Part shown: positions 48,530-63,614 of the stretch, piece by piece
Layout of the letters: each line of letters starts with the position of its first letter
How positions within the stretch are numbered: position 1 is the first letter of the stretch
From: a bacterium
GTDB taxonomy: Bacteria; Elusimicrobiota; Elusimicrobia; UBA1565; UBA9628
NCBI GenBank assembly: GCA_021799485.1
Contig: JAJZAK010000008.1
Location: forward strand, 5,569 to 69,568
DNA length: 64,000 nucleotides
Direction of reading: 5' to 3'
The notes under the pieces: generated by a model
Seen by the model: only the letters and a program-made list of their open reading frames with translations
Database searches by the model: none
Told to the model about the DNA's origin: nothing
Position numbers and translations under genes: made by a program

Positions 48530-48613
48530 TGGGCAGGGCGGGAATCGAACCCGCACGGCCTTGCGGCCGAGGGATTTTAAGTCCCTTGCGTCTGCCAGTT
48601 CCGCCACCTGCCC
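48530..48613 (-). tRNA. tRNA-Leu (anticodon UAA), type II with a long variable arm
   Basis: Reverse complement GGGCAGGTGGCGGAACTGGCAGACGCAAGGGACTTAAAATCCCTCGGCCGCAAGGCCGTGCGGGTTCGATTCCCGCCCTGCCCA folds with a 7-bp acceptor stem, U8, a CTTAAAA anticodon loop, a long variable arm and a GTTCGATTC T-loop. Confidence 0.8.
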
Positions 48614-48702: not shown

Positions 48703-48784
48703 CATGCGTGTAAAGGATTTTACCCTTTTTTACACGCATGGGCCTGGATGCGTGTCAGCGGGGGGCGAGTAGTCCCTTGCGTCT
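48703..48784. repeat. 12-bp inverted repeat (CATGCGTGTAAA...TTTACACGCATG) plus a GGCGAGTAGTCCCTTGCGTC repeat copy next to the tRNA
   Basis: Perfect 12-bp arms at 48703-48714 and 48729-48740. A 19-20-nt element shared with 59204-59223 includes a 12-14-nt match to the tRNA-Leu D/anticodon-arm sequence. Confidence 0.45.
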
Positions 48785-48840: not shown

Positions 48841-49134
48841 CTATCGTTGTAATTTGGGATCGTTGGGTAATCGCCCATGAGTTTCAAGGTGTGCGAGCCA
48901 TTGGTAGTAGCTCTCAGCCATTATGATTGCGTCCTCTAAGTGCACGCCATGTCCGCTTTTATCGGCCGCACGCATGAGGAACTCGATTCGCATCTTGGCC
49001 AACTCGATGGCTTTGTTGACCAAGAGTTCGCGCCTTCGTGCCTTCCGGTCAAAATACTGTCCCACCAGGGCGACTATTCCCGAGACGATTGCGCCGGTCA
49101 AGGAGGCCGTCAGGATCGTTTGGATCACAGTCAT
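48841..49134 (-). CDS. hypothetical small membrane-anchored protein
   Basis: MTVIQTILTASLTGAIVSGIVALV TM helix followed by a charged helix. Lower-GC codon usage. Confidence 0.3.
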   Translation of the reverse strand: MTVIQTILTASLTGAIVSGIVALVGQYFDRKARRRELLVNKAIELAKMRIEFLMRAADKSGHGVHLEDAIIMAESYYQWLAHLETHGRLPNDPKLQR

Positions 49135-49145
49135 TATGCGCCTTC

Positions 49146-50054
49146 CTATGTCGGCTCGGAGGATGGCTCTGGGGGTGCGATAGCCGAAGGGATATCTTGC
49201 TTGCTGAGGAAGGCCAGGAACTGCTGGCACATGGATAAGCTGGCGAGTGCCTCGGAGCGCGTGGCGGGATGGCCCGAATGAGGTCCTATGGAAGCGAACC
49301 CCTTCAGTGCGTCATAGAGTTTCTTCGTGTTGTCGCGTCGGAGCGATTGATCCTTGTCGCCATCCAAGGTTTTGATATATCCCCTGAATGGCTCTCCTAG
49401 GCCCTCAACGGCCTTTCTGGCCTCCATGAGGGTGCCGGGATAGTCGCCACCCAGGAAGCGACGCTTGGCGTCGTTGATATGGGCCCAGGAGGAGGCGAAT
49501 ATCTTCCTGTTGACGTCGTCTTTCGGGAGGACAACCTCAATTGGCAATATCTCAGCGTAGTTCCATCGACCCAGGACCTCTATCCACTCAGCTTGCGAAA
49601 CTTGGAAGTCGCTTCTACCATCTCGAACGAGATCGGCCTGCAACCAGAAGATGGATTGGACCTCGCTCTTCTCCTTGGCCACTTCCGCACACATGAATTG
49701 GAGACCAGCGGAGAATCCTACTCCACCACCATCCCGATACTTCTCGATTTCATGCACGGTTTCCCAGTCGAGGGATAGGACCAATTGGTCCTGCCACTTG
49801 TTGTGTGGATGGAACTCCATGGGGTAGGGAGGGGATTGCAGGCAAAGGCGGGAGAGCGGTCCCAGGTAGCGATCTCCTTGCGAAGTTCGTAATAACATTG
49901 TGCCCTCGATCCCCAAGACGGCGATTACGAAGGGATGCGTGCTCGTGGCGGTAACCCGGAAGACGATAGTCGGCCTGGCGGCATTGGGGAGGCCGTATAC
50001 GCCGGCCACTTCGACCTCAAATCGCGAATTGAGCCTGCTCTTATATGTTGCCAC
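49146..50054 (-). CDS. hypothetical protein (302 aa) in the lower-GC patch
   Basis: Long ORF with atypical composition for this genome. No motifs recognised. Confidence 0.4.
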   Translation of the reverse strand: MATYKSRLNSRFEVEVAGVYGLPNAARPTIVFRVTATSTHPFVIAVLGIEGTMLLRTSQGDRYLGPLSRLCLQSPPYPMEFHPHNKWQDQLVLSLDWETVHEIEKYRDGGGVGFSAGLQFMCAEVAKEKSEVQSIFWLQADLVRDGRSDFQVSQAEWIEVLGRWNYAEILPIEVVLPKDDVNRKIFASSWAHINDAKRRFLGGDYPGTLMEARKAVEGLGEPFRGYIKTLDGDKDQSLRRDNTKKLYDALKGFASIGPHSGHPATRSEALASLSMCQQFLAFLSKQDIPSAIAPPEPSSEPT

Positions 50055-50063
50055 CCCGATCCT

Positions 50064-50140
50064 CGTTTGGCGATTCTAGTAAATCATCCCCAGATGACGT
50101 GTCCGCGCAAGGAGAAAAGTCCTTTACGTCCTCAACGCGG
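50064..50140. repeat. about 80-nt repeated element, copy 1, with a palindromic core GATTCTAGTAAATC, upstream of the 302-aa minus-strand gene
   Basis: About 75% identical to 59165-59240. Lies 10-85 nt upstream of the start codon at 50054. Confidence 0.5.
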
Positions 50141-50851
50141 GACTGGGCGCCGCATCTGGATCGGGAGCCCATAGGCGTCCCGTTCCTCGCCCGCGGCCTT
50201 GATCGTGGCCTCCGGCCGCCATGTCGCGGCCGTGACGCAGGCCACGACCGCGTCCAATACGTCGTCCTCCTGCAACTTGTTGCGGGGCCACGAGCCCGAC
50301 GCCTTGGTCACGGCCACGTCTAGGCCCGGCACAAAGCATCTCAGAAGCGCCCGCCGGGCCCGCAGGCCATCTTTCTTCTTCTTGCCGATCATCAGGGGAA
50401 CGCCGCCATTCAGGGCCGCAAAGCAGGTCTCGGGATGCACCTCCCAGATGCGGCCGGCGCTCCCAGGTTGGGTCATCAGATAACGGTCTACCTCGTCAAT
50501 CTTCGGCATGATCGCGAATGCCTGTCGCGACAGCCCCTTCCCGCAGAGTTCCCAGTGTAGGCGGTTGGCCTTCTCGTAGGTCTTGGCGGCAAGAACGGGC
50601 CTGGGAGGCGCCGGGAACACGCACATCCAGCGCGCGCCCAGGGCTTTGCGGGCGAGTAGGTCAACCGCCCTACCGTCACGCTCGCCAAGGCCGATCGGGA
50701 TGTCCACGGCGACGTGGGCGGCATCCTTGGCGGCGTCGATCGCGTCCGCGAACGTCGAGTGAACGCCGACCTTGACCGTCAACGCGCGCGCCGAGCCCGT
50801 ACCCATGGCTAGGCACCATCCGCCCCGGCAACCGTCGATTCCGGCGACCAT
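50132..50851 (-). CDS. DUF429 family protein (predicted RNase H-like nuclease fold)
   Basis: N-terminal MVAGIDGCRGGW matches the DUF429 signature (GIDGC.GGW). Confidence 0.55.
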   Translation of the reverse strand: MVAGIDGCRGGWCLAMGTGSARALTVKVGVHSTFADAIDAAKDAAHVAVDIPIGLGERDGRAVDLLARKALGARWMCVFPAPPRPVLAAKTYEKANRLHWELCGKGLSRQAFAIMPKIDEVDRYLMTQPGSAGRIWEVHPETCFAALNGGVPLMIGKKKKDGLRARRALLRCFVPGLDVAVTKASGSWPRNKLQEDDVLDAVVACVTAATWRPEATIKAAGEERDAYGLPIQMRRPVPR

Positions 50852-50893: not shown

Positions 50894-53800
50894 TCAGCTA
50901 CGAGCTAAAAAATCAGCGGTTGTATTCCGAACGAGCTTTTCGTGGTAGGCTTGATTGGAGTAGGTCTTCAAGCAATCATAACAGGCCATTTCGCAGGTGC
51001 ACTGAGAGCAGATTTCTGCGCTTTGCGTCACGACCGACGCCCAAGCGTCCATCGCTTGCTTTACAAACCCCGCGCCGCCGGGCGTAAGGTCAAAGAAGAT
51101 TAGTTCGGGACGTGGTCGTGATATTTTCTGACCGAGCCATCGCCAGGACACTCCGATGTCTTGAGACTCGACGTCCAATACCCTGCAAATGCCTCGCTGA
51201 AGCGCATATGCGAGGGACTCGACAGACGGAGGCGGGGCTATTGGACGAGCTATCAAACAATAGCTTTGGAACACATGCCCATATGATATTTGCCGCCATA
51301 GCGGGTGGCCGCAACTGGCAGTGCCAGAGAACACACGAAGCCGTTTGTGTTTGCGTTCGGTTCGCGAGCTAATCTCCGGCTCGCTGGATCCACATGTCGG
51401 ACAGAGACTAAACCCACGCGCTTGCGGTCCGAGGTTGTATCTAAAGAGACTGCCCTCTTCTTTCATAGCCAATCGGAACAGGCCGTTGTCTTTGAACTCA
51501 GGATCCTCTACTGCGTCAATAAACTGCGTGACAGTTTGGCGCTGCCGCAACAAAGTTCCACGTCGAAATCGTTCGGCTCCGCCACCCTTGGAATCCAGAC
51601 GGACACTAAAGGCGGCCGGCTGGATATATGGCTTGATATCCTGTATGGTGATCGCGCGCCCGCACACACTGCACGAGACCTTGAGCGCGTCCTGCGTTGG
51701 AGCCGTGCGTATTTGCTCACAACTCCTGCATCGAGAGAACCAGCGACGGACCGGGACATCCGAATTGCCCATAATGTAAAGTCCTGCGCTCGTGAAAACC
51801 TTCTTATGCGCAATAACCTGTGCCCCTGGCGCAAATTCAGCAATTGCCAACCCACGTTCACGACTCAGTTCTACGTCGGAGTCTCTCGACCATCGAGTCT
51901 TTCCTGTTTCAAGACTAACAACGTCGAGCGGGAATGCGTATCGTGGCAAGAAACCTTCTCTCGCCATGATGTCAATAACGTTGCTTCCAAGCAACTCTTT
52001 GATAGAACGCTCGATGTCGGCAAGATGTTCGCCAAGCGCAACAAGTCGACCTCGTTCGGCGACTAACGCGGCAAGCTCTTCACCAAGCCGATTTATAACA
52101 TCACGGTATGATGATATTGCTCCTTCGCGCGCCTCGACGAATCCGCCGGCCGACGTAGCCACGGCTTTCCCAACTTCGGTATGAAATATCTGGACTTCAT
52201 TTTGCGCTGCCAGCCAAGCAATGAAGTCGAGAAATGTATCTGTGGGGCGTGCTTGAATCCACCCCGTTGGAATATTGCGGCGGGAATCAATAGGAAGGAA
52301 AACCTCGAGACGGATTTTTTGTTTGATTGTATCGCCGAGCACGCGCTCATCGCGGATTTTGATCCGCAAGAAATCCGCAAATGCGACTGCATTGAAATGA
52401 CGTTGCGCGATAATGCGATTGTCTACGAACACGGATGGGGTGCGGACTTCGCCTGACATCAGGAGTTGTGGCTTACTCCAAGCGTCAGAGTCATACTTCG
52501 TTCTCCGACACATGGTGACGCATACGGCGTTTTTATCCTTGCCTCTTCCCGCGCGACCAACTCGCTGGATATAACTCGCGCTGCTCGGGGGGGCATTTCG
52601 CAGGAGGACCTTTTGGAGGTCTCCAATATTGATGCCCATCTCGAAGGTGGTTGTACTACTTAGCAGGTTTAGTCCCTGCGCCCGGAAATCATCCTCGATC
52701 GTTTTAGCAAGGTCCTTGTTTATTTGTGCCGTGTGTTCCTCTGACCGTAGAGTGCTGAATGTCACTGAGCGATCGCCTGCTACCCACCTAGCGATAAGGT
52801 TGGCGTCGTCGGGATTAAACGTCGCTGCCCCTAATCTGCCAAGACAGCCCTTCTTCGGGCAGCAGCCTCGCGCGGAAAACGTGGTCACGATACCACAGCG
52901 ATCACATACGAATCGCGCCGTAGCCTTCCTCACAAAAATGCGTTCATGGTCGAGTTTCCATTCACCGCGGGACGGAATCAAAAGGACTTGCGTGATTAAG
53001 AATTGCCAGATCGCTTCCGCGATAGCGAGGATGTCCGTCGGCGATTTGCCAGTGAGCCGTCGAATGTAATCCGTGAAGTAGTTGTCGCGGTAAGAGCCGT
53101 CCACATTCTTTTGCGGCGTCCAGCCTACCGCGTTCCGACGACCTTGTCGTTCATGTAGCAGGGCGATATCAGCTGTAATTCGCCCAAAGGCTGGCGCATC
53201 AGGCAAGACGCGTCCCCTTGGCAGAGTGAATATCTTTCTCTGGCGAACGTACGCCAGAAGTGATTGAAGAGCCGCCGCCGAGTCTTCATGTGTTAAATGG
53301 CTGGGCTGAAGTAACGCATGGAACTTGTCACGTTCCGCCGCGGTCGTCTCGTACTCGACGGTCAGTAAACCGAAGTCTTCGGCTGATTCTCGCGCGGAGT
53401 CGGGGACGCCGAAGTATGCAAAAACCTCCGCTACCCACAAGTCCCGCTCGCGTTTTTTATCAAGCTGCTCCTCCGGCTTTCGCGAGGCCGGTAGAAATAG
53501 ATTCGGATCAAACGTGCTGGAAGCAGGGTCTGTGGATTCCGCGAGCCGCTCTCCCAGCGATATAAAGTCAATATGCTCGCCATCTTTAATGAGCGATACT
53601 ATTTTGCGGCCGAGATCATAACCGAAAGTCTCCTCCTCAAGGAGGGACGGAAACGCTGCGGCGCGCTGGCGGTTATCGGTAAAGCAAAGGAGCTTCCGGG
53701 CACGCCTCTCCGCCGATGAGGACGAAATATTGAAATGCGCCAGCGGAATCGCCATCGCGAGGCCAACTTCATCATCTGATTCTTGGAATCGTCTTACTGG

Positions 53801-55774
53801 CTCGAGGCCCGAAGCGTTGCGGCCGCCACAATTCGGACAGCAAGGCAAAAGCTCCTTATCACCACCATAAAGTTTTGTTTGGTCCTTGGACCGCTTGGAG
53901 TGCGGACATTGCCTGTGGAACACTAGCAACTCCCGAATCAGCGGCGGCGCACACTGACAATCGTCTCCGGCGTCGTTGTACTTCCGCTTCCCGCATATGG
54001 TGCACCACGGCACCCTTTCCGGCCTGTCAATGAGGTCTGCATCCTCCTCTTCATCCGTGGCGGCCTGTGACGGGAAAGGAAGCTCGTCCTGGATGCTGAA
54101 GTAGGTCCAGAACGAGTCGGCGGCCCAGCCGAGTTCAGTCGAGAAGGCATCAAAGCATGGCTTCGGCTCATCAACACCAGCCTCTTGATTGCGAGCACGG
54201 CGCGGCCCGAGGTCCTGCAGCGCGCCATAAAGATAACCACACTTTCTACACGAAACGAGTTCGACGAGCTGTGACCGCATCCCCACGGCATGGCAGTCAG
54301 GACAGTAACCTATTGGAGCGTCGGGCAGATGGTTCCGAGTAACGAACAGGCTTGGTTTACCCTCTCGTCGCGCAGGGCAGCGCGGCGATAAGCAGATGTG
54401 GAGCCCATCTTCGGCCTTCACAAAGTAGTGGAGGCGCGTTGGCAGTAAATCCTCAGTCGCTCCAAGTTCCTTTGCGGAAGCCACAACTTCGAGTAGCGCG
54501 TTAAGTGCTTCTTCGGCCTTTGGACTTTTTGGCCACAATTCGGCCGCAACGGACGCCAAGGGTTTCGGTACCGTCAGGATATCTTTCCTGAGTTTGTGAA
54601 GGTTTTCATCCCGAAGAAGTCCATCGAGGAGGTTCGTCCCTGGCGGCAAGCCAAGACTCTGCCCGGGGTCCTTCTTTGCTCGAACGTCTGTGGCGGCGCG
54701 GATGTACTGATCGGGGGACGGGCGAATAACCGGATTGGTGATCACCGGTGTGGCGATAGTCCCGTATATTGGGCTGCGCTGGTCAAATCCTGCGCCGAAC
54801 AACGCTGATGCAAATTCTCTAACCTTTTGAATACTCCGTGGATCATCCTTCTTGCCCAAAGTTGCGGACGTAGCGATACAACACACCTTATTCGCGTTCA
54901 GCCGATCCCTGAGGCGCCTTAGGAGAAATCCGATCTCCGTTGCCTGAACGCCGCGGTAGGCGTGAACTTCATCTAGCACAATGAACTTCAATCGTGCGTT
55001 TTCAAAGATGGGCGCATCAACGGGCCGCTCGAGGAGGTACTCCAACATCGAAAAGTTCGTTATTAGGATATGCGGCGGCGCAAGACGAATCTGGTCTCGG
55101 TGATTGAGACGATTTGAAATCTCTTCGCGGTCGCGGCGAAGTTGCTCGCGGAGTTGTCGCGATACTTCCCGTTGAAGCTCCTGTTGGCCGTGCATTTCCA
55201 CTTCGAGCCTTCTGCGAAGTGCATCTTCAAGCCGATTCTGATAATCCCCCTGCGTGCCTGGTGTCTGCCCTGAAAAGCGCGCGAATCGGATCGACGGATA
55301 CTCTCGAAGAATTTCTTCCCATTCGCCGAGTTGATCGTTTACCAGCGCGTTAAGGGGGTAGATAATGATCGCACGAAGCCCCGGCGTGCAGTCCCGGATG
55401 AGATCATCGAGAATCGGGATCTGATAGCAGAGCGTTTTACCACTACTCGTTCCAGTGGCTACTACTACGTTGCCGCCACTCAAGACAGCTTCCAGGGCTT
55501 CGGTTTGATGCTTATAGAGCGTGCGGTTGGACAATCGTCGTTCAACGGTTTGTATCGTCTTCTTATGAAGGTCAAGGGACGTTAAGGGCGCCCCAGGCGC
55601 ATACGCTTGGGAGCGTTCCATGTAGGGGCCGCGGACGAGCGCCTCGACATTGAGTTTCTCTTCCCAAACGCTTTTCGCGTGGCTGAACGCAGGATGAAAG
55701 CGATAGCGCGCCTTGAGCAGGTCAAGGTAAGGGACAAACACATCTGATCTGAAACGGGAAGTTAGGGATTCCAT
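50894..55774 (-). CDS. large SF2 DEAD/DEAH-box helicase with multiple zinc ribbons and a DUF1998/MZB-like C-terminus (DruE-like)
   Basis: YKHQTEALEAVLSGGNVVVATGTSSGKT (motifs I/Ia), FIVLDEVH (DEVH), TTTFEMGINIGDL and YIQRVGRAGR (motifs V/VI). At least 6 CxxC pairs. Terminal CSQCTCEMACYDC cluster. Confidence 0.7.
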   Translation of the reverse strand: MESLTSRFRSDVFVPYLDLLKARYRFHPAFSHAKSVWEEKLNVEALVRGPYMERSQAYAPGAPLTSLDLHKKTIQTVERRLSNRTLYKHQTEALEAVLSGGNVVVATGTSSGKTLCYQIPILDDLIRDCTPGLRAIIIYPLNALVNDQLGEWEEILREYPSIRFARFSGQTPGTQGDYQNRLEDALRRRLEVEMHGQQELQREVSRQLREQLRRDREEISNRLNHRDQIRLAPPHILITNFSMLEYLLERPVDAPIFENARLKFIVLDEVHAYRGVQATEIGFLLRRLRDRLNANKVCCIATSATLGKKDDPRSIQKVREFASALFGAGFDQRSPIYGTIATPVITNPVIRPSPDQYIRAATDVRAKKDPGQSLGLPPGTNLLDGLLRDENLHKLRKDILTVPKPLASVAAELWPKSPKAEEALNALLEVVASAKELGATEDLLPTRLHYFVKAEDGLHICLSPRCPARREGKPSLFVTRNHLPDAPIGYCPDCHAVGMRSQLVELVSCRKCGYLYGALQDLGPRRARNQEAGVDEPKPCFDAFSTELGWAADSFWTYFSIQDELPFPSQAATDEEEDADLIDRPERVPWCTICGKRKYNDAGDDCQCAPPLIRELLVFHRQCPHSKRSKDQTKLYGGDKELLPCCPNCGGRNASGLEPVRRFQESDDEVGLAMAIPLAHFNISSSSAERRARKLLCFTDNRQRAAAFPSLLEEETFGYDLGRKIVSLIKDGEHIDFISLGERLAESTDPASSTFDPNLFLPASRKPEEQLDKKRERDLWVAEVFAYFGVPDSARESAEDFGLLTVEYETTAAERDKFHALLQPSHLTHEDSAAALQSLLAYVRQRKIFTLPRGRVLPDAPAFGRITADIALLHERQGRRNAVGWTPQKNVDGSYRDNYFTDYIRRLTGKSPTDILAIAEAIWQFLITQVLLIPSRGEWKLDHERIFVRKATARFVCDRCGIVTTFSARGCCPKKGCLGRLGAATFNPDDANLIARWVAGDRSVTFSTLRSEEHTAQINKDLAKTIEDDFRAQGLNLLSSTTTFEMGINIGDLQKVLLRNAPPSSASYIQRVGRAGRGKDKNAVCVTMCRRTKYDSDAWSKPQLLMSGEVRTPSVFVDNRIIAQRHFNAVAFADFLRIKIRDERVLGDTIKQKIRLEVFLPIDSRRNIPTGWIQARPTDTFLDFIAWLAAQNEVQIFHTEVGKAVATSAGGFVEAREGAISSYRDVINRLGEELAALVAERGRLVALGEHLADIERSIKELLGSNVIDIMAREGFLPRYAFPLDVVSLETGKTRWSRDSDVELSRERGLAIAEFAPGAQVIAHKKVFTSAGLYIMGNSDVPVRRWFSRCRSCEQIRTAPTQDALKVSCSVCGRAITIQDIKPYIQPAAFSVRLDSKGGGAERFRRGTLLRQRQTVTQFIDAVEDPEFKDNGLFRLAMKEEGSLFRYNLGPQARGFSLCPTCGSSEPEISSRTERKHKRLRVFSGTASCGHPLWRQISYGHVFQSYCLIARPIAPPPSVESLAYALQRGICRVLDVESQDIGVSWRWLGQKISRPRPELIFFDLTPGGAGFVKQAMDAWASVVTQSAEICSQCTCEMACYDCLKTYSNQAYHEKLVRNTTADFLARS

Positions 55775-57885
55775 AGGTCATTCACCACTCGCGCACCGCG
55801 CGACTTCAGGTATCGATAGATTTCTCCGTTCGCTTCCGCGGGCCACTCAATTTGGACGAAGGGGGGCTCTCCCCGTTGGTCAACGATGGAAACTGGCGGC
55901 AATTTGTCCTTCATGAGGTGGTACATCTTCCGATAGAGGCCCCACAAGATCGATGGGTCACCACAAAACCTCATCGTTAGCCAAGGTGAATGAGCTTTCA
56001 ATATGGCGCGCGATTCAGCGATCGCCCAGCATCGTCCGCGTTGAATAATCAGGCGAACATCCAAGTACTTTTTAAGCAGGTAATACGAAACCTTCGTATC
56101 CGGAGCTATCACATGACTCGCAAGCGCAAGCTCATCCCACTTGAGTCCTTCGCGTGATTGAGCGAGAAGGAACCAAAGCAAGTAGTTCCCGGGGAGGGCT
56201 CGCCAGCACCGCTCAATCTCAATCCTTGGGTTCTCGAACCAAAGATCATATGCGAATCTGATTCCGAGCCGTGTCGCTTCAATCGTTAAAATTCGGTGAC
56301 CTTGGAGATCCATCGGCTCGAAGAACTTTCCCAACTCCCTGAGATTTGTGGCCTTCCCGGTGCGCACCTTCTCTAGAAGCGGACGTTTTGACCAGCTCCA
56401 AAAGAACAATTCGTAGTCCTCGAGGGCTTCTCCCCGTCTTTCCCACGAGCCGCCAGCTCTATGGCCGTCGATTTGGACAATGAAGTTTTCCTGGACGGTC
56501 TGCTCGCTGTTCGCGAAGTAGCCAAGCGGGACGAGTACGCACACCAAAGGAAATTTCTCAATGTTCAGCGAGTCGCCTTCCCGCCGGAATCGGGCAGAGT
56601 GCCAACCCTGTCCGACAAATAGTCGCGCCTGAACGCGCTTCCGAGTTCGGAACCGCAGCTCAGTAGTTTTAGCCCCATCGGCTATCGAGGCAGCCGCGAA
56701 CCTATCCTTGGGCCAAAGCCGCGTGAGATAGCAAGAAGTTCCGTCCGGCAGTTCATATCGATCATTCGCCGGGCAGTCCGCCTCTTCAAATCCCCGTCTG
56801 ACGAGCTGCACGGGCTTCGTGGCGATGAGCACGTAGCTCCGGAGCGGCAACTCCTCACGATTGGTATTTATCCAATAGCCGCCACGTTCCATATCGAAGA
56901 GGCCCCAGGGGTTGAGCCCTGGGAGCCGCACAGCTTGTGAGTCTGATTGAGCTGTTATGGTCGCTGGTATCGCGGGTGCGAACGCGGCCGAATCGATCGC
57001 TATTTCTGCAGGTGTCGCATTTGCCGCGAGAGGCCGCCCGGCAATGTTCCATGTCGCTGGGAGACGTTGGCGGTCCAAGCCGGGCAGGTGCAGCACTAGA
57101 GAACAGTTCTGGTCCTTCCAGACCAGGCGGGGCCGATCTCGGAACAGCGATTCAGGGTCATTCGGTTTAAGAAACTCGGCCGTCTCCGGCACTTCATCGA
57201 AGTACTCGACTCGGAGCAAACACGCCTGCTTCAATTGATCAACCGTCAGGGCCGGATCGCTTGCTAGACAACGCCTCGCATCGAGCATTTCACGGATAAT
57301 TTCAGTGCCGCCCTGTCTGTTGGAGAGCAGGAATGATCGCAGCCGCCGACGGCTTCCCGATAACCGTGTTACGGTGGTCTCCCATTCGTCGCCGGACAAC
57401 GACTGCCAATCTTCACGTGCGGCAGCCCACTCACAGAGATCGAGGAAGCCGTCCCATAGGGAAATTGGTATCCCAATATGGTGGACTGCTGAACCGACGT
57501 AGGACATTCGGGCATCGTTGCCAAGCAGCTTAAGGCCCCATCGCTGGACGGCGGAGCTATAGACTCTGTTAAGTCGATTGTACGCTGCAAGAGGAAGAGT
57601 CTTCTGGGGACATCCGACAGCTTCGGCAAACCGGGGCCAAAACGTGGCGTCTTCGTACTCGAAGAATGCATGTCCCCCATACAAGACCACCAAGCACGCT
57701 GGGAACGTGTCGGGCTTCGTGCGCCATAGGTCCCATGCTTGGCGAGTAACGCCGATAAATCTGTCCCATTCATTACGGTTCGGAATCAGTGGTAGAAGAT
57801 ATCCCGAGCGTTCTCGGACCGTGGCTTCCTGAGAATCGAGAAATTTACGGAAGGTGGACTCAAATGCGATGAGCTGCGTTGTCAT
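55762..57885 (-). CDS. 707-aa protein of unknown function, translationally coupled to the helicase (DruH-like candidate)
   Basis: 13-nt overlap with the downstream helicase gene. No recognised domains. Confidence 0.45.
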   Translation of the reverse strand: MTTQLIAFESTFRKFLDSQEATVRERSGYLLPLIPNRNEWDRFIGVTRQAWDLWRTKPDTFPACLVVLYGGHAFFEYEDATFWPRFAEAVGCPQKTLPLAAYNRLNRVYSSAVQRWGLKLLGNDARMSYVGSAVHHIGIPISLWDGFLDLCEWAAAREDWQSLSGDEWETTVTRLSGSRRRLRSFLLSNRQGGTEIIREMLDARRCLASDPALTVDQLKQACLLRVEYFDEVPETAEFLKPNDPESLFRDRPRLVWKDQNCSLVLHLPGLDRQRLPATWNIAGRPLAANATPAEIAIDSAAFAPAIPATITAQSDSQAVRLPGLNPWGLFDMERGGYWINTNREELPLRSYVLIATKPVQLVRRGFEEADCPANDRYELPDGTSCYLTRLWPKDRFAAASIADGAKTTELRFRTRKRVQARLFVGQGWHSARFRREGDSLNIEKFPLVCVLVPLGYFANSEQTVQENFIVQIDGHRAGGSWERRGEALEDYELFFWSWSKRPLLEKVRTGKATNLRELGKFFEPMDLQGHRILTIEATRLGIRFAYDLWFENPRIEIERCWRALPGNYLLWFLLAQSREGLKWDELALASHVIAPDTKVSYYLLKKYLDVRLIIQRGRCWAIAESRAILKAHSPWLTMRFCGDPSILWGLYRKMYHLMKDKLPPVSIVDQRGEPPFVQIEWPAEANGEIYRYLKSRGARVVNDLWNP

Positions 57886-58157
57886 ATCACCAACTTGATG
57901 GATGGGCGTGAACGTCAGTCCCCTTTGGGCCCATGGATGAGAGCCTCGATGGGAACCACCACGGCAGGTATCCGATCATTCCGTCAGACAGCATTTCGAT
58001 ACGCCGCACATTTTACCGCTTCTATGTGTGAATCGGGTGTCGAAATGTCAGCCTGCCGGCAGGCGTGTTGCCGCGATGCAAGTGGCCCTTCACGGCTTGC
58101 TACCCGAATTTTATGCGGCTCAAGGGTGACGTGGCGCCCCTTCTGAGTAATAGTCGG

Positions 58158-59132
58158 TCAGCGATCAAGGTACCAAAGGGTTTTAATGTCCTCTGAGTCC
58201 ACGCCTTTGGGCGCTGCCGCGGGGGGTTCCAATCGAACCATGCGTGCCGAGTCGCAAAGTTTACCGCCCAGTAATTCCTTCACGGGCTCGGAGAAAATCA
58301 AAGGAGTCTCCGGACTGACTTCTAGTAGACGCGAAGCGAGATTGACGGGGTATCCAATGTAATCGAGACGGAAACGATTGGGATTCTTCGGATTATAAAC
58401 GCGCAGCCTACAAACTTCACCGAGTGTGATTCGTGCGCGGAAGCCACCGGGGCGAGGTGATGGCCATTGAAGGATAAGAGATCTCATTCTCTTGATCAGC
58501 TCAAGTGTGTCGCGCAGAAATATTTCAGCGACCTCGGGAGCTGTCGCGTCGTCGGAAAGTTCCTTTACGAACATGACGCCATCGCCAAGCAATTTAGCGA
58601 AATATGATTTATCCAGACGCAATGTGGAAAACTCTGCATAGATATCCGTCATTGCGTTGCGTAAGGCAGTCTGGGTGAGCGTGGGGCGCTTCAGCCACGT
58701 AGAGAAAGAGATAATATCTCCGAACGCCACGATAATTTTTTTACGGGCCGCTTTGACTCTGGGTTTCGGAACGGCAAAAGAAGATAGCTCAATTGGCTCG
58801 TTTGGCCCTCCAACTTCTTCGGTGCCGTCCCAGCGCACGCCGCAACCCGGACAATCCAGCTCTAGTTTTCTGGCAACTTCAAGGACCTCATCAGAACGAA
58901 GGTGTTGTTTGCGCTTGATCTTTCCCCAACTCTCGAGCGCGCTTTGAATGATGTATTGCAAGGGGTGGGGAGTCGTGAGCCAAACGGCTTCTCCGTCTTC
59001 CCAGGGCATGCATGTGGCGCAACATTGCGCTTCCTCGAAGATTTTCTCGCGCAGTGCGTCAGCATCGCGCTCGATTAATTCGTTTTCGGACCTAGAGAGG
59101 GCCATTAATTCCTTTGCTCCGTCACCATTCAC
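58158..59132 (-). CDS. class III nucleotidyl cyclase with a Cys-rich N-terminal domain
   Basis: IIVAFGDIISFST (metal-binding Asp of the F.D..GFT motif), LLGDGVMFV (second Asp) and GYPVNLASRLLE (VN.ASRL motif). N-terminal CCATC...CPGCG. Confidence 0.7.
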   Translation of the reverse strand: MNGDGAKELMALSRSENELIERDADALREKIFEEAQCCATCMPWEDGEAVWLTTPHPLQYIIQSALESWGKIKRKQHLRSDEVLEVARKLELDCPGCGVRWDGTEEVGGPNEPIELSSFAVPKPRVKAARKKIIVAFGDIISFSTWLKRPTLTQTALRNAMTDIYAEFSTLRLDKSYFAKLLGDGVMFVKELSDDATAPEVAEIFLRDTLELIKRMRSLILQWPSPRPGGFRARITLGEVCRLRVYNPKNPNRFRLDYIGYPVNLASRLLEVSPETPLIFSEPVKELLGGKLCDSARMVRLEPPAAAPKGVDSEDIKTLWYLDR

Positions 59133-59164
59133 GACCTTATTGGTCGCGCCTCGCGTCGTTTGAT

Positions 59165-59240
59165 GATTCTAGTAAATCATCGCCAGAGGGCGTCTTGGCG
59201 CGAGGCGAGTAGTCCCTTGCGTGCAATGCGTCCGCCTCCT
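59165..59240. repeat. about 80-nt repeated element, copy 2, with a perfect palindrome GATGATTCTAGTAAATCATC, upstream of the cyclase gene
   Basis: 7-bp inverted arms with a 6-bp spacer at 59171-59190, followed by GGCGAGTAGTCCCTTGCGT, which is also found at 48764-48784. Confidence 0.5.
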
Positions 59241-59356: not shown

Positions 59357-60508
59357 ATGATGCGCGTTGACATCAAGCCCGAGCTTCTAAACTGGGCCTG
59401 TCAGCGGGCGGGACTCACCGCCGAAGCGATCAGCCATCGCTTCCCGCAGTACATGGCCTGGGTGAGTAAGGAAACCCAGCCAACCTTTAGGCAGATTGAG
59501 CAGTTCGCCAAGGCGACCTACACCCCGGTTGGTTTTCTATTCCTTCCCGCGCCTCCCGTCGAGCAAGTTCCGATCCCTGATTTTCGCACGGTTGCAAACA
59601 AGAAGGTTCATCGACCCAGCCCAGACCTGCTGGATACGATCTATATCTGCCAGCAACGACAAGAGTGGTACCGCGATTATGCCCGATTGTTGGGTGAGCC
59701 GTCGCAGTCGTTCGTAGGATCGGCACGCATCGGTGCCAGCGTTGTCCAAACTGCCAAGGCTATCCGGGATAAACTCGGCCTCAACATCCAAGAGCGTCAA
59801 CAGATTGCGACGTTCGTCGATGCGCTGCGCCGCCTAATCGAGCAGGCCGATTCGATGGGGATCATGGTCATGTGCAGTGGCGTTGTTTCGAGTAACAACA
59901 GGCGTCGCTTGAACCCGGAGGAGTTCCGGGGCTTTGCCATGAGCGATCCCTTGGCGCCACTCATTTTCATAAATGGTTCCGACACCAAGTCGGCACAGAT
60001 GTTCACGCTTGCCCATGAGTTGGCGCACATCTGGGCCGGGAAGTCTGGGGTTGACGACGCCCAGGCATCCTCCATCTCCGGCAACGAGGTCGAGAGGTGG
60101 TGCAACCAGGTAGCGGCCGAACTGCTCGTGCCGATGGCTTCTTTCCGGCCCGAATACGACAAGCACGCGGACCTCGACACCGAACTTCCGCGCCTTTCGC
60201 GGCGTTTTAAGGTGAGCACTCTCGTGATCCTCCGCCGGATGTTAGATGCGGGAGGGATTGCGCAGAAACAATTTTGGGATGCCTACCACGTTGAACTCGA
60301 ACGCTTATCTTCGCTACCTAAGCCCGATGGTGGCGGCAACTTTTACCTGACGACCGCAACCCGCGTCAGTAAACGGTTCGCCCGCGCAATCATCACGAAC
60401 ACCTTGGAGGGCCAGACTTTGCATCGCGATGCCTTCCGCATGTTGGGCTTCTCCAAGCTGGAGACCTTTCGGGAACTCGGGCGCGGACTTGGGGTGATCG
60501 TGAAGTGA
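59357..60508 (+). CDS. XRE-type HTH fused to an ImmA/IrrE-family zinc metallopeptidase (COG2856-like)
   Basis: N-terminal HTH region. HEXXH motif LAHELAHIW with a downstream Glu. Confidence 0.7.
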   Translation: MMRVDIKPELLNWACQRAGLTAEAISHRFPQYMAWVSKETQPTFRQIEQFAKATYTPVGFLFLPAPPVEQVPIPDFRTVANKKVHRPSPDLLDTIYICQQRQEWYRDYARLLGEPSQSFVGSARIGASVVQTAKAIRDKLGLNIQERQQIATFVDALRRLIEQADSMGIMVMCSGVVSSNNRRRLNPEEFRGFAMSDPLAPLIFINGSDTKSAQMFTLAHELAHIWAGKSGVDDAQASSISGNEVERWCNQVAAELLVPMASFRPEYDKHADLDTELPRLSRRFKVSTLVILRRMLDAGGIAQKQFWDAYHVELERLSSLPKPDGGGNFYLTTATRVSKRFARAIITNTLEGQTLHRDAFRMLGFSKLETFRELGRGLGVIVK

Positions 60509-61029
60509 CCTCGGCCGCGACCTATCTGCTCGATGCAAACGTTTTTATGCAGGCCAAGAACCTGCATTACGGACTCGATTTTTGCCCGGCTTTCTGGGAA
60601 TGGTTGATTAAGAACAACGCAGCTGGCCGCGTATTCAGTATCGAGAAAGTCAACGACGAGATTCAGGCTGGCAATGACGAATTATCGACCTGGGCGGCTC
60701 AACGTGGAGCCGGATTCTTCTTGCCGCCGGACCAGTCCTTGTTGTCGGTCTTGGCTCAAGTCAGTACCTGGGCAACGAACCATACTTGGGGGAACCAGCA
60801 ACGGTACTCCCAAGCCGCGATCAGCGCATTTCTTCAGGTAGCGGACTATTATATTGTTGCCCAGGCCCTCGCACATAAGCATGTCTTGGTTACGCACGAG
60901 GTTGCTGCTGCGACGATCAATAAAATCAAAATTCCCAACGCCTGCATCGCGCTCGGCATAAAGTGCATGACGCCCTATGAGATGCTTAGGCGAGAACGAG
61001 CGCGCTTCGTCCTTGGGACACATCCATAG
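60505..61029 (+). CDS. DUF4411-like (PIN-like) protein, 4-bp overlap with the ImmA-like gene
   Basis: N-terminal YLLDANVFMQAK acidic PIN-like motif. 174 aa. ATGA overlap. Confidence 0.5.
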   Translation: MTSAATYLLDANVFMQAKNLHYGLDFCPAFWEWLIKNNAAGRVFSIEKVNDEIQAGNDELSTWAAQRGAGFFLPPDQSLLSVLAQVSTWATNHTWGNQQRYSQAAISAFLQVADYYIVAQALAHKHVLVTHEVAAATINKIKIPNACIALGIKCMTPYEMLRRERARFVLGTHP

Positions 61030-62232
61030 TCAGGCCGCCATCTCCGCCACCCGCAGCGCGATGGGCCTCTCGACGGGGACAACGGTCCCGTTGACCGTGC
61101 CGTCCGACTTGCCGATCAGGCGCTCGAGGTGCTTGCCGTAGAGCACCGCGCTCGCTTCCTTGTGCCGCGGCGACAAGTGCCCGTAAACTTTTTCGACCAT
61201 CGACGGGCTCGTATGTCCGACGAGTGCCGCGATCGTCGCGAAGTCCATGCCACTCATCACCATGATGCTTATCGCCGTATGACGCAGGTCGTGCAACTTG
61301 AAGTTCGCGAGGCCCGCGCGCGCGACGACGTTCTTAAACGCCGTCCTCACGTCTCTGGAGGGGCCTGTCCCTTTGGGATTCGGGAAAAGCCAGGGGCATC
61401 CCATCTCCTTGGCGCGGTCGGCGGCCGCGTCGAGGATCTCGCAGGCGAGACGCGGAATCGGGATCCAATCAGGCGAGCCTTCCTTCGTTTTCTCAAAGAA
61501 CACGTATCCGTTCCTGCGGTCGTAGTTCTCCACGCGTAAACTCAAGACCTCGGTCCGCCGACGACCGATGAAAAGGAGAAGGCGTAGTGCGAGGCGTGAG
61601 CCCTCGAGCTTGAGCGTCTTGAGCGCGTCGAGGAAGTGGTGGAGCTCGTCGTCGATGAGGTGGCGTTTGCGTGTGCGTGCCTTTTCGCTCCTGCGTTTGA
61701 AGCGCGGGGCAGGGTGGAGTGGCAGGATGCCCCACTCGACGGCGCACGCGAGCATGCAGCGGATAACTGAAATTTCACGGTTCACGGAAGAACTCTGGAC
61801 CGTCCGCGCTGTGTTCTTCCGCCACTCCGTGGCGCGCTTCGAGTTGGCCAGCTCGCCGCGGAAGGGAGAGAGAATCTTCTCGCTTTCGCGCATCCCTCGG
61901 TAGCGGGAAAGCAAGCCGTTCGTGATCTGCGTCAGGCGCACGTTGCCTGACCACGCCCGGAACCGCTTCAGGTATCGCTCGACGTGACCGCGATAGGCGA
62001 GCGGATTGACATGCTCCCTCATGAATCTAGGCGTGAACTCGTCCAGGGTTGGGGCCTTGGTCGCGATGCCCAACTTGCCCAAGTTAAGCTCGGTCCGAAT
62101 TTGCGCCGCGAGAGCATCGGCATGCCGCCTCGTGCCAGCCTTCTTCTTGATTTTGACCTTTCGTGCGGGGTCCCAAACGTTCGCGTACCATGTCGTTGTT
62201 CCCGGCCTCTTCCAGATATCCGATTTTGCCAT
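61030..62232 (-). CDS. int: tyrosine-type phage integrase
   Basis: C-terminal catalytic region LHDLRHTAISIMV...GHTSPSMVEKVYGHL (R-H-R-Y family). Confidence 0.85.
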   Translation of the reverse strand: MAKSDIWKRPGTTTWYANVWDPARKVKIKKKAGTRRHADALAAQIRTELNLGKLGIATKAPTLDEFTPRFMREHVNPLAYRGHVERYLKRFRAWSGNVRLTQITNGLLSRYRGMRESEKILSPFRGELANSKRATEWRKNTARTVQSSSVNREISVIRCMLACAVEWGILPLHPAPRFKRRSEKARTRKRHLIDDELHHFLDALKTLKLEGSRLALRLLLFIGRRRTEVLSLRVENYDRRNGYVFFEKTKEGSPDWIPIPRLACEILDAAADRAKEMGCPWLFPNPKGTGPSRDVRTAFKNVVARAGLANFKLHDLRHTAISIMVMSGMDFATIAALVGHTSPSMVEKVYGHLSPRHKEASAVLYGKHLERLIGKSDGTVNGTVVPVERPIALRVAEMAA

Positions 62233-62311: not shown

Positions 62312-62524
62312 TCAAGCCTCATCCCGTGTCGTCCCACGGCGACGTTCGACCGTCTCGACGTTGAACTGGTCGAGCCACGACGCCATCTTTCCCTCGTCGA
62401 ACAGCAGTCTTCCTCCAACCTTCATGTGAGGAACCTTCTTCCTGGAGGCCCAGTTGTATAGCGTGCGGGGTGACAGACGCGTCATCTCGGCCGCCTCAGC
62501 CACGGTCAGAAGTTTTCGTGCCAT
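62312..62524 (-). CDS. xis: AlpA/excisionase-like HTH DNA-binding protein
   Basis: LLTVAEAAEMTRLSPRTLYNWASRKKVPHMKVGGRLLF is a typical phage Xis/AlpA HTH. The start is probably MARKLL. Confidence 0.5.
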   Translation of the reverse strand: MARKLLTVAEAAEMTRLSPRTLYNWASRKKVPHMKVGGRLLFDEGKMASWLDQFNVETVERRRGTTRDEA

Positions 62525-63614
62525 CGCTTTTCCTCCTATCGTTGTGCGTGCGGAAACGGCAGGCGTCGGAACAGAACGAGGCCCACGGTTTCTTCGGCGT
62601 GAAAACGGCACCGCAGCGGTGACACGCCCGGGGACGCACGATCGCGCGGGCGGACGTCTTGGGCGCGTGTCCTGGTCGGGTCATGTCCTGGTCGACGGGC
62701 GTGGACGCGGTGTTCGTGGGTGACGGTGTCGACGTGGACGTGGACGATGTCGTCATGTGCTGGCCGAACTCGACATTCGCGAGAGCGGCGCGTGCCTGCT
62801 CGACGTACTCGTGGTTGAGGTCCGAGCCCACGAAATGACGTCCGAGGGTCTTGGCGGCGATGAGTGTCGTCCCCGATCCACAAAACGTGTCCATGACGAC
62901 GTCACCTTCTTTTGTCGCGTACGAAACCAACCACTCGGCGACGAGCGATGACATGCGCGCGGGGTGCGTCGAAACTTGGTCCTGCGTTTTGTGGATGACG
63001 AGTACGTCGGCGTCCTGACCCAGGAGCAGGGACATCGCGTCCTTCGCGGACATGCGGCGAAGACGCTCGAGGGCTGGTGCGATCACGTCACCAGGGTCCG
63101 CGCCGTTGACCGCGTACTTCGGCCTCTTGTCGATGCCCGACCAGTAACTCGGCCTGCGCACACCGTCCTTGTTCACGATGTACGCCCTCGGGTCCAGGAC
63201 CGCGTGCCAGACCGTCTCCGTCATGCGTCGGAGGGTCTTGTCGTCGTTCTGCGGATGCGCATTCGATTTCAGGATCGTGAGTTGCTGGACGATGTGGAAG
63301 CCACGTTCGACGAGGGTCTGTGGGAGGAGCCACGCCGTCGGCGATAGGGCGCCGTCGATCGTCTGCGGCATGAAATTCAGGAAGATGTGGCCCGTCGGCT
63401 TCTTCAACACGCGTTTCCACTCGTCGATCACAGGGATCATGTGCTTGATGAAATCTGCGCCCGCGAATTGTCCGAGGTCCACGGGGTCGTCCGAATACTT
63501 GCGCATTCGCTCGAACGGCGGGCTCGTGATGATCGCGTCGATGCTCGCGTCCGGCACGCGGGGGAGGTGCGCGGCGTCGGCCACTACGACTTGGTTGAGC
63601 CAGTTCGTCGTCAC
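62496..63614 (-). CDS. DNA methyltransferase (N6-adenine/N4-cytosine, beta class) with a C-terminal Thr/Ser-rich linker and zinc ribbon
   Basis: IDAIITSPPF (motif IV) upstream of THPARMSS...DVVMDTFCGSGTT (motif I), i.e. PF01555-like order. C-terminal CHRCG...CSDAC. Confidence 0.8.
   Translation of the reverse strand: MTTNWLNQVVVADAAHLPRVPDASIDAIITSPPFERMRKYSDDPVDLGQFAGADFIKHMIPVIDEWKRVLKKPTGHIFLNFMPQTIDGALSPTAWLLPQTLVERGFHIVQQLTILKSNAHPQNDDKTLRRMTETVWHAVLDPRAYIVNKDGVRRPSYWSGIDKRPKYAVNGADPGDVIAPALERLRRMSAKDAMSLLLGQDADVLVIHKTQDQVSTHPARMSSLVAEWLVSYATKEGDVVMDTFCGSGTTLIAAKTLGRHFVGSDLNHEYVEQARAALANVEFGQHMTTSSTSTSTPSPTNTASTPVDQDMTRPGHAPKTSARAIVRPRACHRCGAVFTPKKPWASFCSDACRFRTHNDRRKSDGTKTSDRG

Follow-up and report, generated by a model that had tools for sequence, protein, structure and literature searches.

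A Druantia type III variant with a compact, nuclease-less DruE and a short DruH-like partner on a low-GC island

The nearest described relatives of the locus treated here are the Druantia type III pairs, in which a partner protein, DruH, is encoded upstream of the helicase DruE. In type III-A (DruH-DruE of Escherichia coli and Pseudomonas aeruginosa; PDB 9tu7-9tuc for DruE and 9tud for DruH) the stop of the partner gene overlaps the start of the helicase gene. In III-B, or mycobacterial, DruH-DruE the two genes also overlap, and a DruE of about 1600-1670 amino acids (aa), which ends just after its DUF1998 domain, is accompanied by a DruH of about 1130 aa. The stretch of DNA analyzed, called the window, comprises 64,000 nucleotides (nt) of contig JAJZAK010000008.1, and positions are given in window coordinates unless another contig or plasmid is named. 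On its reverse strand a gene for a 707-aa protein (P707, the product of the upstream gene) overlaps a gene for a 1626-aa helicase. The pair is classed as a Druantia type III variant that comes close to III-B, and it is quite likely to be a self-contained two-gene anti-phage module of this kind, carried on a low-GC (guanine plus cytosine) integrative island. It does not represent a new principle.

The original prediction for this locus, made from the sequence, had called such systems mechanistically unresolved; this no longer holds, several papers from 2025-2026 having described type III mechanisms. DruE dimers load on exposed single-stranded DNA (ssDNA) or 3' overhangs and unwind 3'->5'. One account presents DruH as a 3'-5' exonuclease with an essential conserved cleft in its N-domain and a C-domain that binds the DruE stalk on forked DNA. 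A second describes an ATP-inhibited ssDNA binder with no detectable nuclease activity, and a third a sensor of phage protein with dimer-dependent nicking. In mycobacteria a nuclease-less pair, triggered by a minor tail protein, keeps phage DNA from circularising and replicating. PLD-like nuclease domains are assigned by the literature to the C-terminal region of DruE (two in III-A), and were dispensable in one E. coli study.

The gene pair and its helicase

The pair, the region upstream of it and the gene that follows it are located as follows.

55762..57885, reverse strand: P707 gene (707 aa), a short DruH-like protein whose family has so far been annotated only as hypothetical
50894..55774, reverse strand: gene for the compact nuclease-less DruE helicase (1626 aa)
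57886..58157, reverse strand: intergenic region upstream of the pair (272 nt), presumed operon promoter
50132..50851, reverse strand: DUF429 gene (239 aa; Pfam PF04250, 2.9e-53)

The coordinates of the two open reading frames (ORFs) and their overlap of 13 nt were confirmed, the shared sequence being ATGGAATCCCTAA. Both are real genes and not chance ORFs, since each has many full-length homologues and the region stands out as a low-GC island. In the public annotation of the source contig P707 is called with 581 aa (P0001, 82% coverage); the longer 707-aa start is favoured because homologues align from residues 1-5. A scan of the locus for consensus promoters and terminators gave nothing above background and performed no better than on shuffled sequence.

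A word-indexed search identified 131 homologues of P707, nearly all of about 700 aa and none annotated, and the P707 family profile, run with HMMER exhaustively against 1.84 billion representatives, gave 178 at E<=1e-3. More than 120 homologues of the window DruE were found, with lengths of 1612-1665 aa and identities of 56-77%. Fifty-two related genome loci, all from metagenome-assembled genomes, were compared, and in every one with enough downstream DNA the P707 homologue lay directly upstream of a full-length DruE of this clade. The spread is patchy and takes in Elusimicrobia, Planctomycetota, Acidobacteriota, Nitrospirota, Binatia, Verrucomicrobiota and others. Of 43 loci, 23 have the same 13-nt overlap and 41 a gene spacing between -13 and +12 nt. 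Across loci the identity of P707 to its window copy co-varies with that of DruE (r = 0.91), P707 diverging faster (mean identity 39% vs 57% for DruE). Both genes are inherited as a unit and presumably function as one. The surrounding genes were entirely different from one examined locus to another. Clustering of flanking ORFs (5 kb; 42 loci with a complete pair) gave no family in more than three loci, and those few were syntenic housekeeping genes of related genomes.

The helicase is a DruE-family superfamily 2 (SF2) protein with a fused DUF1998 domain and without a PLD nuclease tail. Its domains are placed as follows.

54845..55513, reverse strand: RecA1 half of DruE (residues ~88-310) with motifs I, II and III, from the Pfam DEAD match and the motif positions
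52541..52741, reverse strand: RecA2 core of DruE (residues 1012-1078) with motif VI, from the Pfam Helicase_C match and the motif
50969..51214, reverse strand: MZB/DUF1998 zinc-binding domain of DruE (residues 1521-1602), Pfam PF09369, 5.7e-13

Two RecA-like halves had been predicted, and both were recovered above the curated Pfam cut-offs as DEAD (PF00270, residues 88-170, 2.2e-24) and Helicase_C (PF00271, residues 1012-1078, 5.3e-11), with motif I (GTSSGKT) at 108, motif II (DEVH) at 268, motif III (SAT) at 303 and motif VI (QRVGRAGR) at 1070. The halves are about 700 residues apart, and five CxxC pairs lie in between; the protein has ten CxxC motifs in all, where "at least six" zinc ribbons had been claimed. 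Zinc-binding modules, with a long zinc-module insertion between the RecA halves, are a published trait of defence helicases of the YprA-like group. The terminal four-cysteine cluster CSQCTCEMACYDC (1589-1601) is enclosed by the PF09369 match, which scored 49.8 bits against a cut-off of 24.2. The fusion sets the protein apart from DISARM, as had been argued from the sequence: there the helicase DrmA and the DUF1998 protein DrmB are separate genes, accompanied by a methyltransferase and often a PLD protein. No DISARM partner gene adjoins the window pair.

Based on PADLOC models, the helicase matched DruE3 (PDLC00037) at 5.4e-166, DruE1 at 3.6e-155, and DruE2 and DruE4 near 1e-100, in agreement with the earlier assignment to DruE; the DpdJ, BrxH and DrmA models scored far lower (DrmA 6e-14). 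Since the DruE3 and DruE1 scores are nearly equal, the helicase falls outside the modelled DruE subclades; a genuine III-A DruE gave 2177 vs 573 bits with the same two models. The closest sequence match in PDB was the 2108-aa chain 9tu7_Y (9.2e-84), with YprA/MrfA (6znp) behind at 1.1e-26.

The Zorya II-Druantia III-ARMADA II island of E. coli provided a reference type III-A locus. The window helicase is colinear, from residue 45 to its C-terminus, with residues 51-1712 of the 2104-residue E. coli DruE, so that the correspondence with III-A runs from the N-terminus through DUF1998 and includes the same motifs and zinc modules, at an identity of only 24-29%. The last ~390 aa of E. coli DruE have no counterpart in the window helicase, which terminates 24 residues past the MZB domain, and the PADLOC match ends at profile position 1673 of 2055. 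From these two end points it follows that a C-terminal region of ~390 residues, the one that carries the PLD nuclease domains in III-A, is missing. The helicase is therefore of the compact III-B-like form, a likeness that is taken from the published description of III-B.

The DruE proteins of E. coli III-A, of the compact Clostridium system and of Nostoc are about equally far from the window clade (330-450 summed bits, vs at least 1900 within the clade), and plasmid-borne homologues are all at most 29% identical to the window DruE. A compact pair from a cultured organism is found on Clostridium butyricum plasmid pNPD4_2 (L062, 2747-10632), where the gene for a 1069-aa partner overlaps that for a 1559-aa nuclease-less DruE by 4 nt. 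This DruE scored 589 bits with DruE1 and 562 bits with DruE3. Its partner has no DruH match and no similarity to P707, and constitutes a further unrecognised partner type. Because other compact DruE proteins also have unrecognised partners, partner diversity among them looks general; the literature describes DruE as "paired with variable subunits".

Two further plasmid matches were recorded. One (H30) is an ARMADA II array, and the other (H1) is a DruE locus with different partner genes, which resemble chromosome-segregation ATPases.

The partner protein and its relation to DruH

P707 had been described as a protein without recognisable domains, and profile searches bear this out: neither Pfam nor NCBIfam nor PADLOC (even at E<=10) gave a match, and a search of PDB sequences with the P707 profile gave nothing. 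An AlphaFold2 model was obtained with a mean predicted local distance difference test (pLDDT) score of 89 and a predicted template modelling (pTM) score of 0.82. In this model P707 is built like a cut-down DruH, with a helical N-domain, an immunoglobulin (Ig)-like array and a different C-terminal domain.

57136..57885, reverse strand: P707 residues 1-250, all-helical N-domain, the most conserved part (predicted secondary structure)
56236..57129, reverse strand: P707 residues 253-550, about three Ig-like beta-sandwich domains (strand pattern, Foldseek)
55765..56223, reverse strand: P707 residues 555-707, a winged helix and then a small ACT-like alpha/beta domain (predicted structure)

The N-domain carries two near-invariant motifs, G138-I-P140-x-S-L-W and EYFDEVPETAEF (E227-Y-F-D-E-V-P-E-T-A), and conservation is lowest in the third Ig-like domain. 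Foldseek comparison with PDB and BFVD returned only generic tandem Ig arrays at low template modelling scores (titin, ICAM-like receptors, SbsC and phage Ig proteins); the baseplate-J similarity published for DruH was not reproduced there.

No sequence model places P707 in the STY4851/ECs_5259, YjiT-like family to which DruH belongs. E. coli DruH matches ten PADLOC DruH3 models and P707 none. PF27205 and PF27201 occur together in 41 of 43 DruH homologues (one of the others has only PF27205 and one, a truncated entry, has none) and in none of the 120 P707 family members listed. Neither direct BLASTP nor profile-versus-sequence comparison detected a similarity between P707 and E. coli DruH, and hhalign over the full proteins gave a probability of 0.35% (E 0.17), the range across all comparisons being 0.35-9%. 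The profile-profile alignment is nevertheless colinear, pairing P707 57-233 with DruH 60-231 and bringing the most conserved positions into register (Y69/Y72, W83/W88 and G138xP140/G137xP139 in P707/DruH). For the N-domains alone the hhalign score was 25.7 (P 0.006), which was reached by one of 120 column or block shuffles (mean 16, standard deviation 3); with bridging sequences 216 colinear columns scored 28 (P 0.004).

An AlphaFold2 model of E. coli DruH (pLDDT 81.5) is helical at residues 9-247 (N-domain) and 842-1118 (C-domain), with a beta region at 260-831 between them, a layout with which the published cryo-EM descriptions of DruH agree. When the two N-domains are compared position by position as helix or non-helix, agreement is 69% at zero offset, compared with about 55% at most other offsets and 66% at the next best (-40), and the helical-to-beta boundary falls at residue 253 in P707 and 260 in DruH. 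A further link was provided by the 1120-aa protein P0423, which was found by the P707 profile (E 3e-7) and aligned to P707 over the N-domain and first Ig-like domain with an hhalign probability of 97.7% (E 2e-12). Its gene overlaps a DruE-like gene by 4 nt (L061, 5599-8961 and 8958-9584, a metagenome contig), the helicase being cut off at the contig end. P0423 itself is not called a DruH by PADLOC or hhalign.

From these weak but converging signals, a remote homology between the N-domains of P707 and DruH is probable but unproven. In the predicted models both proteins begin with a helical domain and continue into an Ig-like array. In P707 the array is halved (about three Ig-like domains vs six), the length is reduced (707 aa vs 1119 aa in E. 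coli DruH) and the C-domain is of the winged-helix/ACT-like type where that of DruH is helical. A complete DruH has about 1100 aa and runs from a helical N-domain through six Ig-like domains to a helical C-domain; P707 matches this architecture in the N-domain and the Ig-like array only. As P707 lacks both this architecture and any match to the DruH models, it is described as a DruH-like partner and is not filed as a DruH member. The predicted DruH-plus-DruE layout thus stands as regards the coupled two-gene arrangement of type III, which is conserved, but not as regards a recognisable DruH. The III-B pairs differ in the same respect, their partner being a DruH of full length and that of the window a shorter protein which the DruH models miss. 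None of the libraries and papers examined describes the partner family, and two protein accessions of the clade were absent from the supplement text of the YprA classification paper.

Several variants of the partner were observed. In Binatia (L005, 10001-11578, and L039; proteins P0113, P0114 and P0119) residues 1 to about 416 are kept, and the third Ig-like domain and winged-helix/ACT-like C-terminus are replaced by a CarD/TRCF RNA-polymerase-interacting domain (PF02559, 1e-12 to 4e-14); these genes still lie directly upstream of a full-length compact DruE. The domain matches hint that the C-terminal module of the partner is exchangeable, and it may provide a link to RNA polymerase. Three other members of the partner family, P0323 (837 aa), P0329 (870 aa) and P0337 (857 aa), have N-terminal extensions of about 120-290 residues, that of P0337 containing a SWIM-like CxC...CxH motif. 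On contig L061 P0423 is preceded by a UvrD-like helicase gene and by a 1061-aa ORF that weakly matches the C-terminal portion of DruE; this may be another unclassified Druantia-like arrangement.

Proposed action and alternative explanations

By analogy, the window pair would most likely work as the published DruH-DruE systems do. The helicase would load on exposed ssDNA or on forked replication or recombination intermediates of the phage and translocate 3'->5', and the partner encoded upstream would serve as sensor and DNA-handling factor. In such a scheme the Ig-like array may recognise a phage cue, the N-domain of P707 may do the job of the DruH N-domain, for which 3'-5' end processing has been proposed, and the winged helix could hold DNA or the helicase, replacing the helical C-domain of DruH as contact element. 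The pair would in this way block replication or circularisation of phage DNA without a dedicated nuclease domain in DruE, as published for the mycobacterial system and in keeping with the reported dispensability of the PLD domains in E. coli.

Several observations weigh against a Druantia type III module of this description. Every clade member comes from an uncultured organism, the clade being known from sequences alone. Neither protein has a recognisable nuclease domain, which leaves the killing step unaccounted for. P707 fails every DruH sequence model and its profile-profile probability stays below 10%, so that its functional equivalence to DruH is inferred. Its C-domain differs from the helical one of DruH, which binds to the DruE stalk and makes up the ssDNA/ATP site together with Ig5, and the mode of coupling to DruE may therefore differ. 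The published accounts of DruH itself conflict, the protein being an exonuclease, an ATP-inhibited ssDNA binder without nuclease activity or a dimer-dependent nickase.

The origin of the partner admits a rather doubtful alternative, namely that P707 is unrelated to DruH and was recruited independently, the pair then forming a separate Druantia type with a mechanism unlike that of DruH-DruE; a winged-helix/Ig partner might, for instance, guide the helicase to RNA polymerase or to particular DNA. Such recruitment would fit the lack of a DruH model match, the low hhalign probabilities, the different C-domain, the Binatia proteins in which CarD/TRCF replaces the C-terminal half, the occurrence with other nuclease-less DruE proteins of partners that PADLOC does not call DruH, and the nearly equal distance of the clade from the E. 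coli III-A, compact Clostridium and Nostoc DruE. It does not account for the same order of domains with nearly the same helical/beta boundary, the colinear alignment that puts the most conserved motifs in register at a score which shuffling almost never reached, the helix patterns that agree best at zero offset, or a position and coupling to druE identical to those of DruH. A remodelled DruH is preferred on these grounds. In its most specific form, which is offered only tentatively, this reading would make the pair an unnamed Druantia subtype, so far confined to uncultured bacteria of many phyla. P707 would be a DruH that keeps the N-domain, has lost half of the Ig array and has swapped its C-domain (for the winged-helix/ACT-like module, or CarD/TRCF in Binatia), and it would steer the nuclease-free compact DruE. 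Immunity would then be obtained without a dedicated nuclease, for instance by helicase disruption of replication intermediates or by handover to host enzymes.

Two other explanations change the composition or the purpose of the module. The DUF429 gene had been put forward as a possible third component, and an RNase H-like protein could supply the nuclease that the compact DruE lacks. The gene does start 42 nt past the helicase stop on the same strand, as reported earlier, with no terminator-like site between them in a scan that was uninformative, and it lies in the same repeat-bounded 9.1-kb block as the pair. A three-gene system is nevertheless very unlikely: no DUF429 homologue was found near the pair in the 52 related loci or on four further contigs reached through three homologues, no flanking family recurred in more than three of 42 loci, and the protein has no PADLOC match. 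It may still be co-transcribed with the pair at this locus. Less credible still is a role in DNA repair, with an MrfA/YprA- or Lhr-type helicase assisted by an accessory factor; clustering with such helicases was what the original prediction had named as refuting it. MrfA/YprA shares the SF2 core and the DUF1998/MZB zinc domain, there is distant similarity to 6znp, and repair models are matched at scores far below their cut-offs (NCBIfam repair and housekeeping helicase models). The DruE models, however, gave 330-550 bits compared with about 130 bits or less for the repair and housekeeping models, and the long zinc-module insertion is typical of the defence YprA-like helicases. MrfA is about half the size (YprA chain 6znp_A, 751 aa), lacks the BrxA-like and zinc-module insertions according to the literature, and pairs with the exonuclease MrfB; no MrfB-type exonuclease was present among the window neighbours, and no neighbour recurred in the 42 loci. 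The setting in a low-GC integrative island and the patchy distribution across phyla with variable neighbours also speak against a repair function. A two-gene defence module is accordingly retained.

In practice only the helicase of the pair is recognised by PADLOC, Pfam and NCBIfam, and a tool that requires a known partner would in consequence overlook the system or report it as partial. Members of the family are spread widely through environmental lineages with poorly charted defence repertoires (Acidobacteriota, Nitrospirota, Binatia, Planctomycetota, Verrucomicrobiota and Elusimicrobia). A naturally minimised partner (707 vs about 1100 aa) with a high-confidence model, next to a nuclease-less helicase, is a useful comparison for the dispute over the role of DruH (sensor, ssDNA binder or exonuclease), and the helicase also bears on the question of whether DruE requires PLD domains. 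With conserved motifs in its N-domain and a C-terminal module that can be swapped, the partner offers a handle for assigning sensing, coupling to DruE and action on DNA to its different parts. The interest of the pair is moderate, and lies in the annotation of environmental genomes and in a minimal system for comparison.

The island and its other genes

The GC content drops from ~65% in the rest of the window to 54-56% between ~48.6 and 61 kb. The low-GC stretch begins beside a tRNA-Leu gene, and the following features were identified in and next to it.

48530-48613, reverse strand: tRNA-Leu(TAA) gene
48841-49230, reverse strand: 129-aa ORF, overlapping the 302-aa ORF, between the tRNA gene and the repeat at 50063
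49146-50054, reverse strand: 302-aa ORF, overlapping the 129-aa ORF, between the tRNA gene and the repeat at 50063
58158-59132, reverse strand: cyclase-like 324-aa ORF directly upstream of the pair, with N-terminal CxxC pairs
59357-60508, forward strand: ImmA/IrrE-type M78 metallopeptidase gene (Pfam 4.6e-18; PADLOC capP and RmrA-like matches)
60505-61029, forward strand: DUF4411 gene (2e-53), overlapping the metallopeptidase gene by 4 nt
61030-62232, reverse strand: tyrosine integrase gene, within the low-GC stretch
62496-63614, reverse strand: N4/N6 DNA methyltransferase gene (PF01555, 7e-31; PADLOC type II methyltransferase), just past the integrase

An imperfect direct repeat of 67 nt (79% identity) at 50063-50129 and 59156-59222 encloses a 9.1-kb block of four genes: the cyclase-like ORF, P707, DruE and DUF429. 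An exact further copy of the 19-nt repeat core, GCGAGTAGTCCCTTGCGT, lies at 48764-48782, and a 14-nt part of this core is found again within the body of the tRNA-Leu gene (48580-48593), possibly by chance (E about 0.06). Given the drop in GC content, the tRNA-Leu gene, the integrase and the repeats, the pair is horizontally acquired island cargo; the E. coli III-A locus likewise lies on an island beside tRNA-Leu and a tyrosine integrase. Together with the ImmA-like/DUF4411 and methyltransferase genes, these features give the locus the character of a defence island, which favours an anti-phage role of the pair. Several cargo modules may have accreted in tandem at att-like sites beside the tRNA gene, served by the single integrase at 61030-62232.

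The DUF429 gene and the other neighbours are independent cargo of the island. Homologues of the DUF429, 302-aa, 129-aa, cyclase-like, ImmA-like and DUF4411 products were not found by tblastn in the 52 related loci, and DUF429, the cyclase-like ORF, the 302-aa ORF and the ImmA/DUF4411 genes, which never co-occur with the pair there, were rejected as components. The 129-aa and 302-aa ORFs have no significant family match, the best for the 129-aa ORF being holin_lambda at E 0.025, below cut-off. No restriction partner of the methyltransferase was found up to the window end. The cyclase-like ORF weakly resembles class III nucleotidyl cyclases (PF00211 at 3.6e-4, which is below cut-off, and the PADLOC model for the Pycsar cyclase PycC at 2.7e-5), and no effector gene is evident for it. 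The ImmA/IrrE-type peptidase and DUF4411 genes, which lie between the Druantia block and the integrase, have the appearance of a toxin-antitoxin-like or defence-regulator pair.

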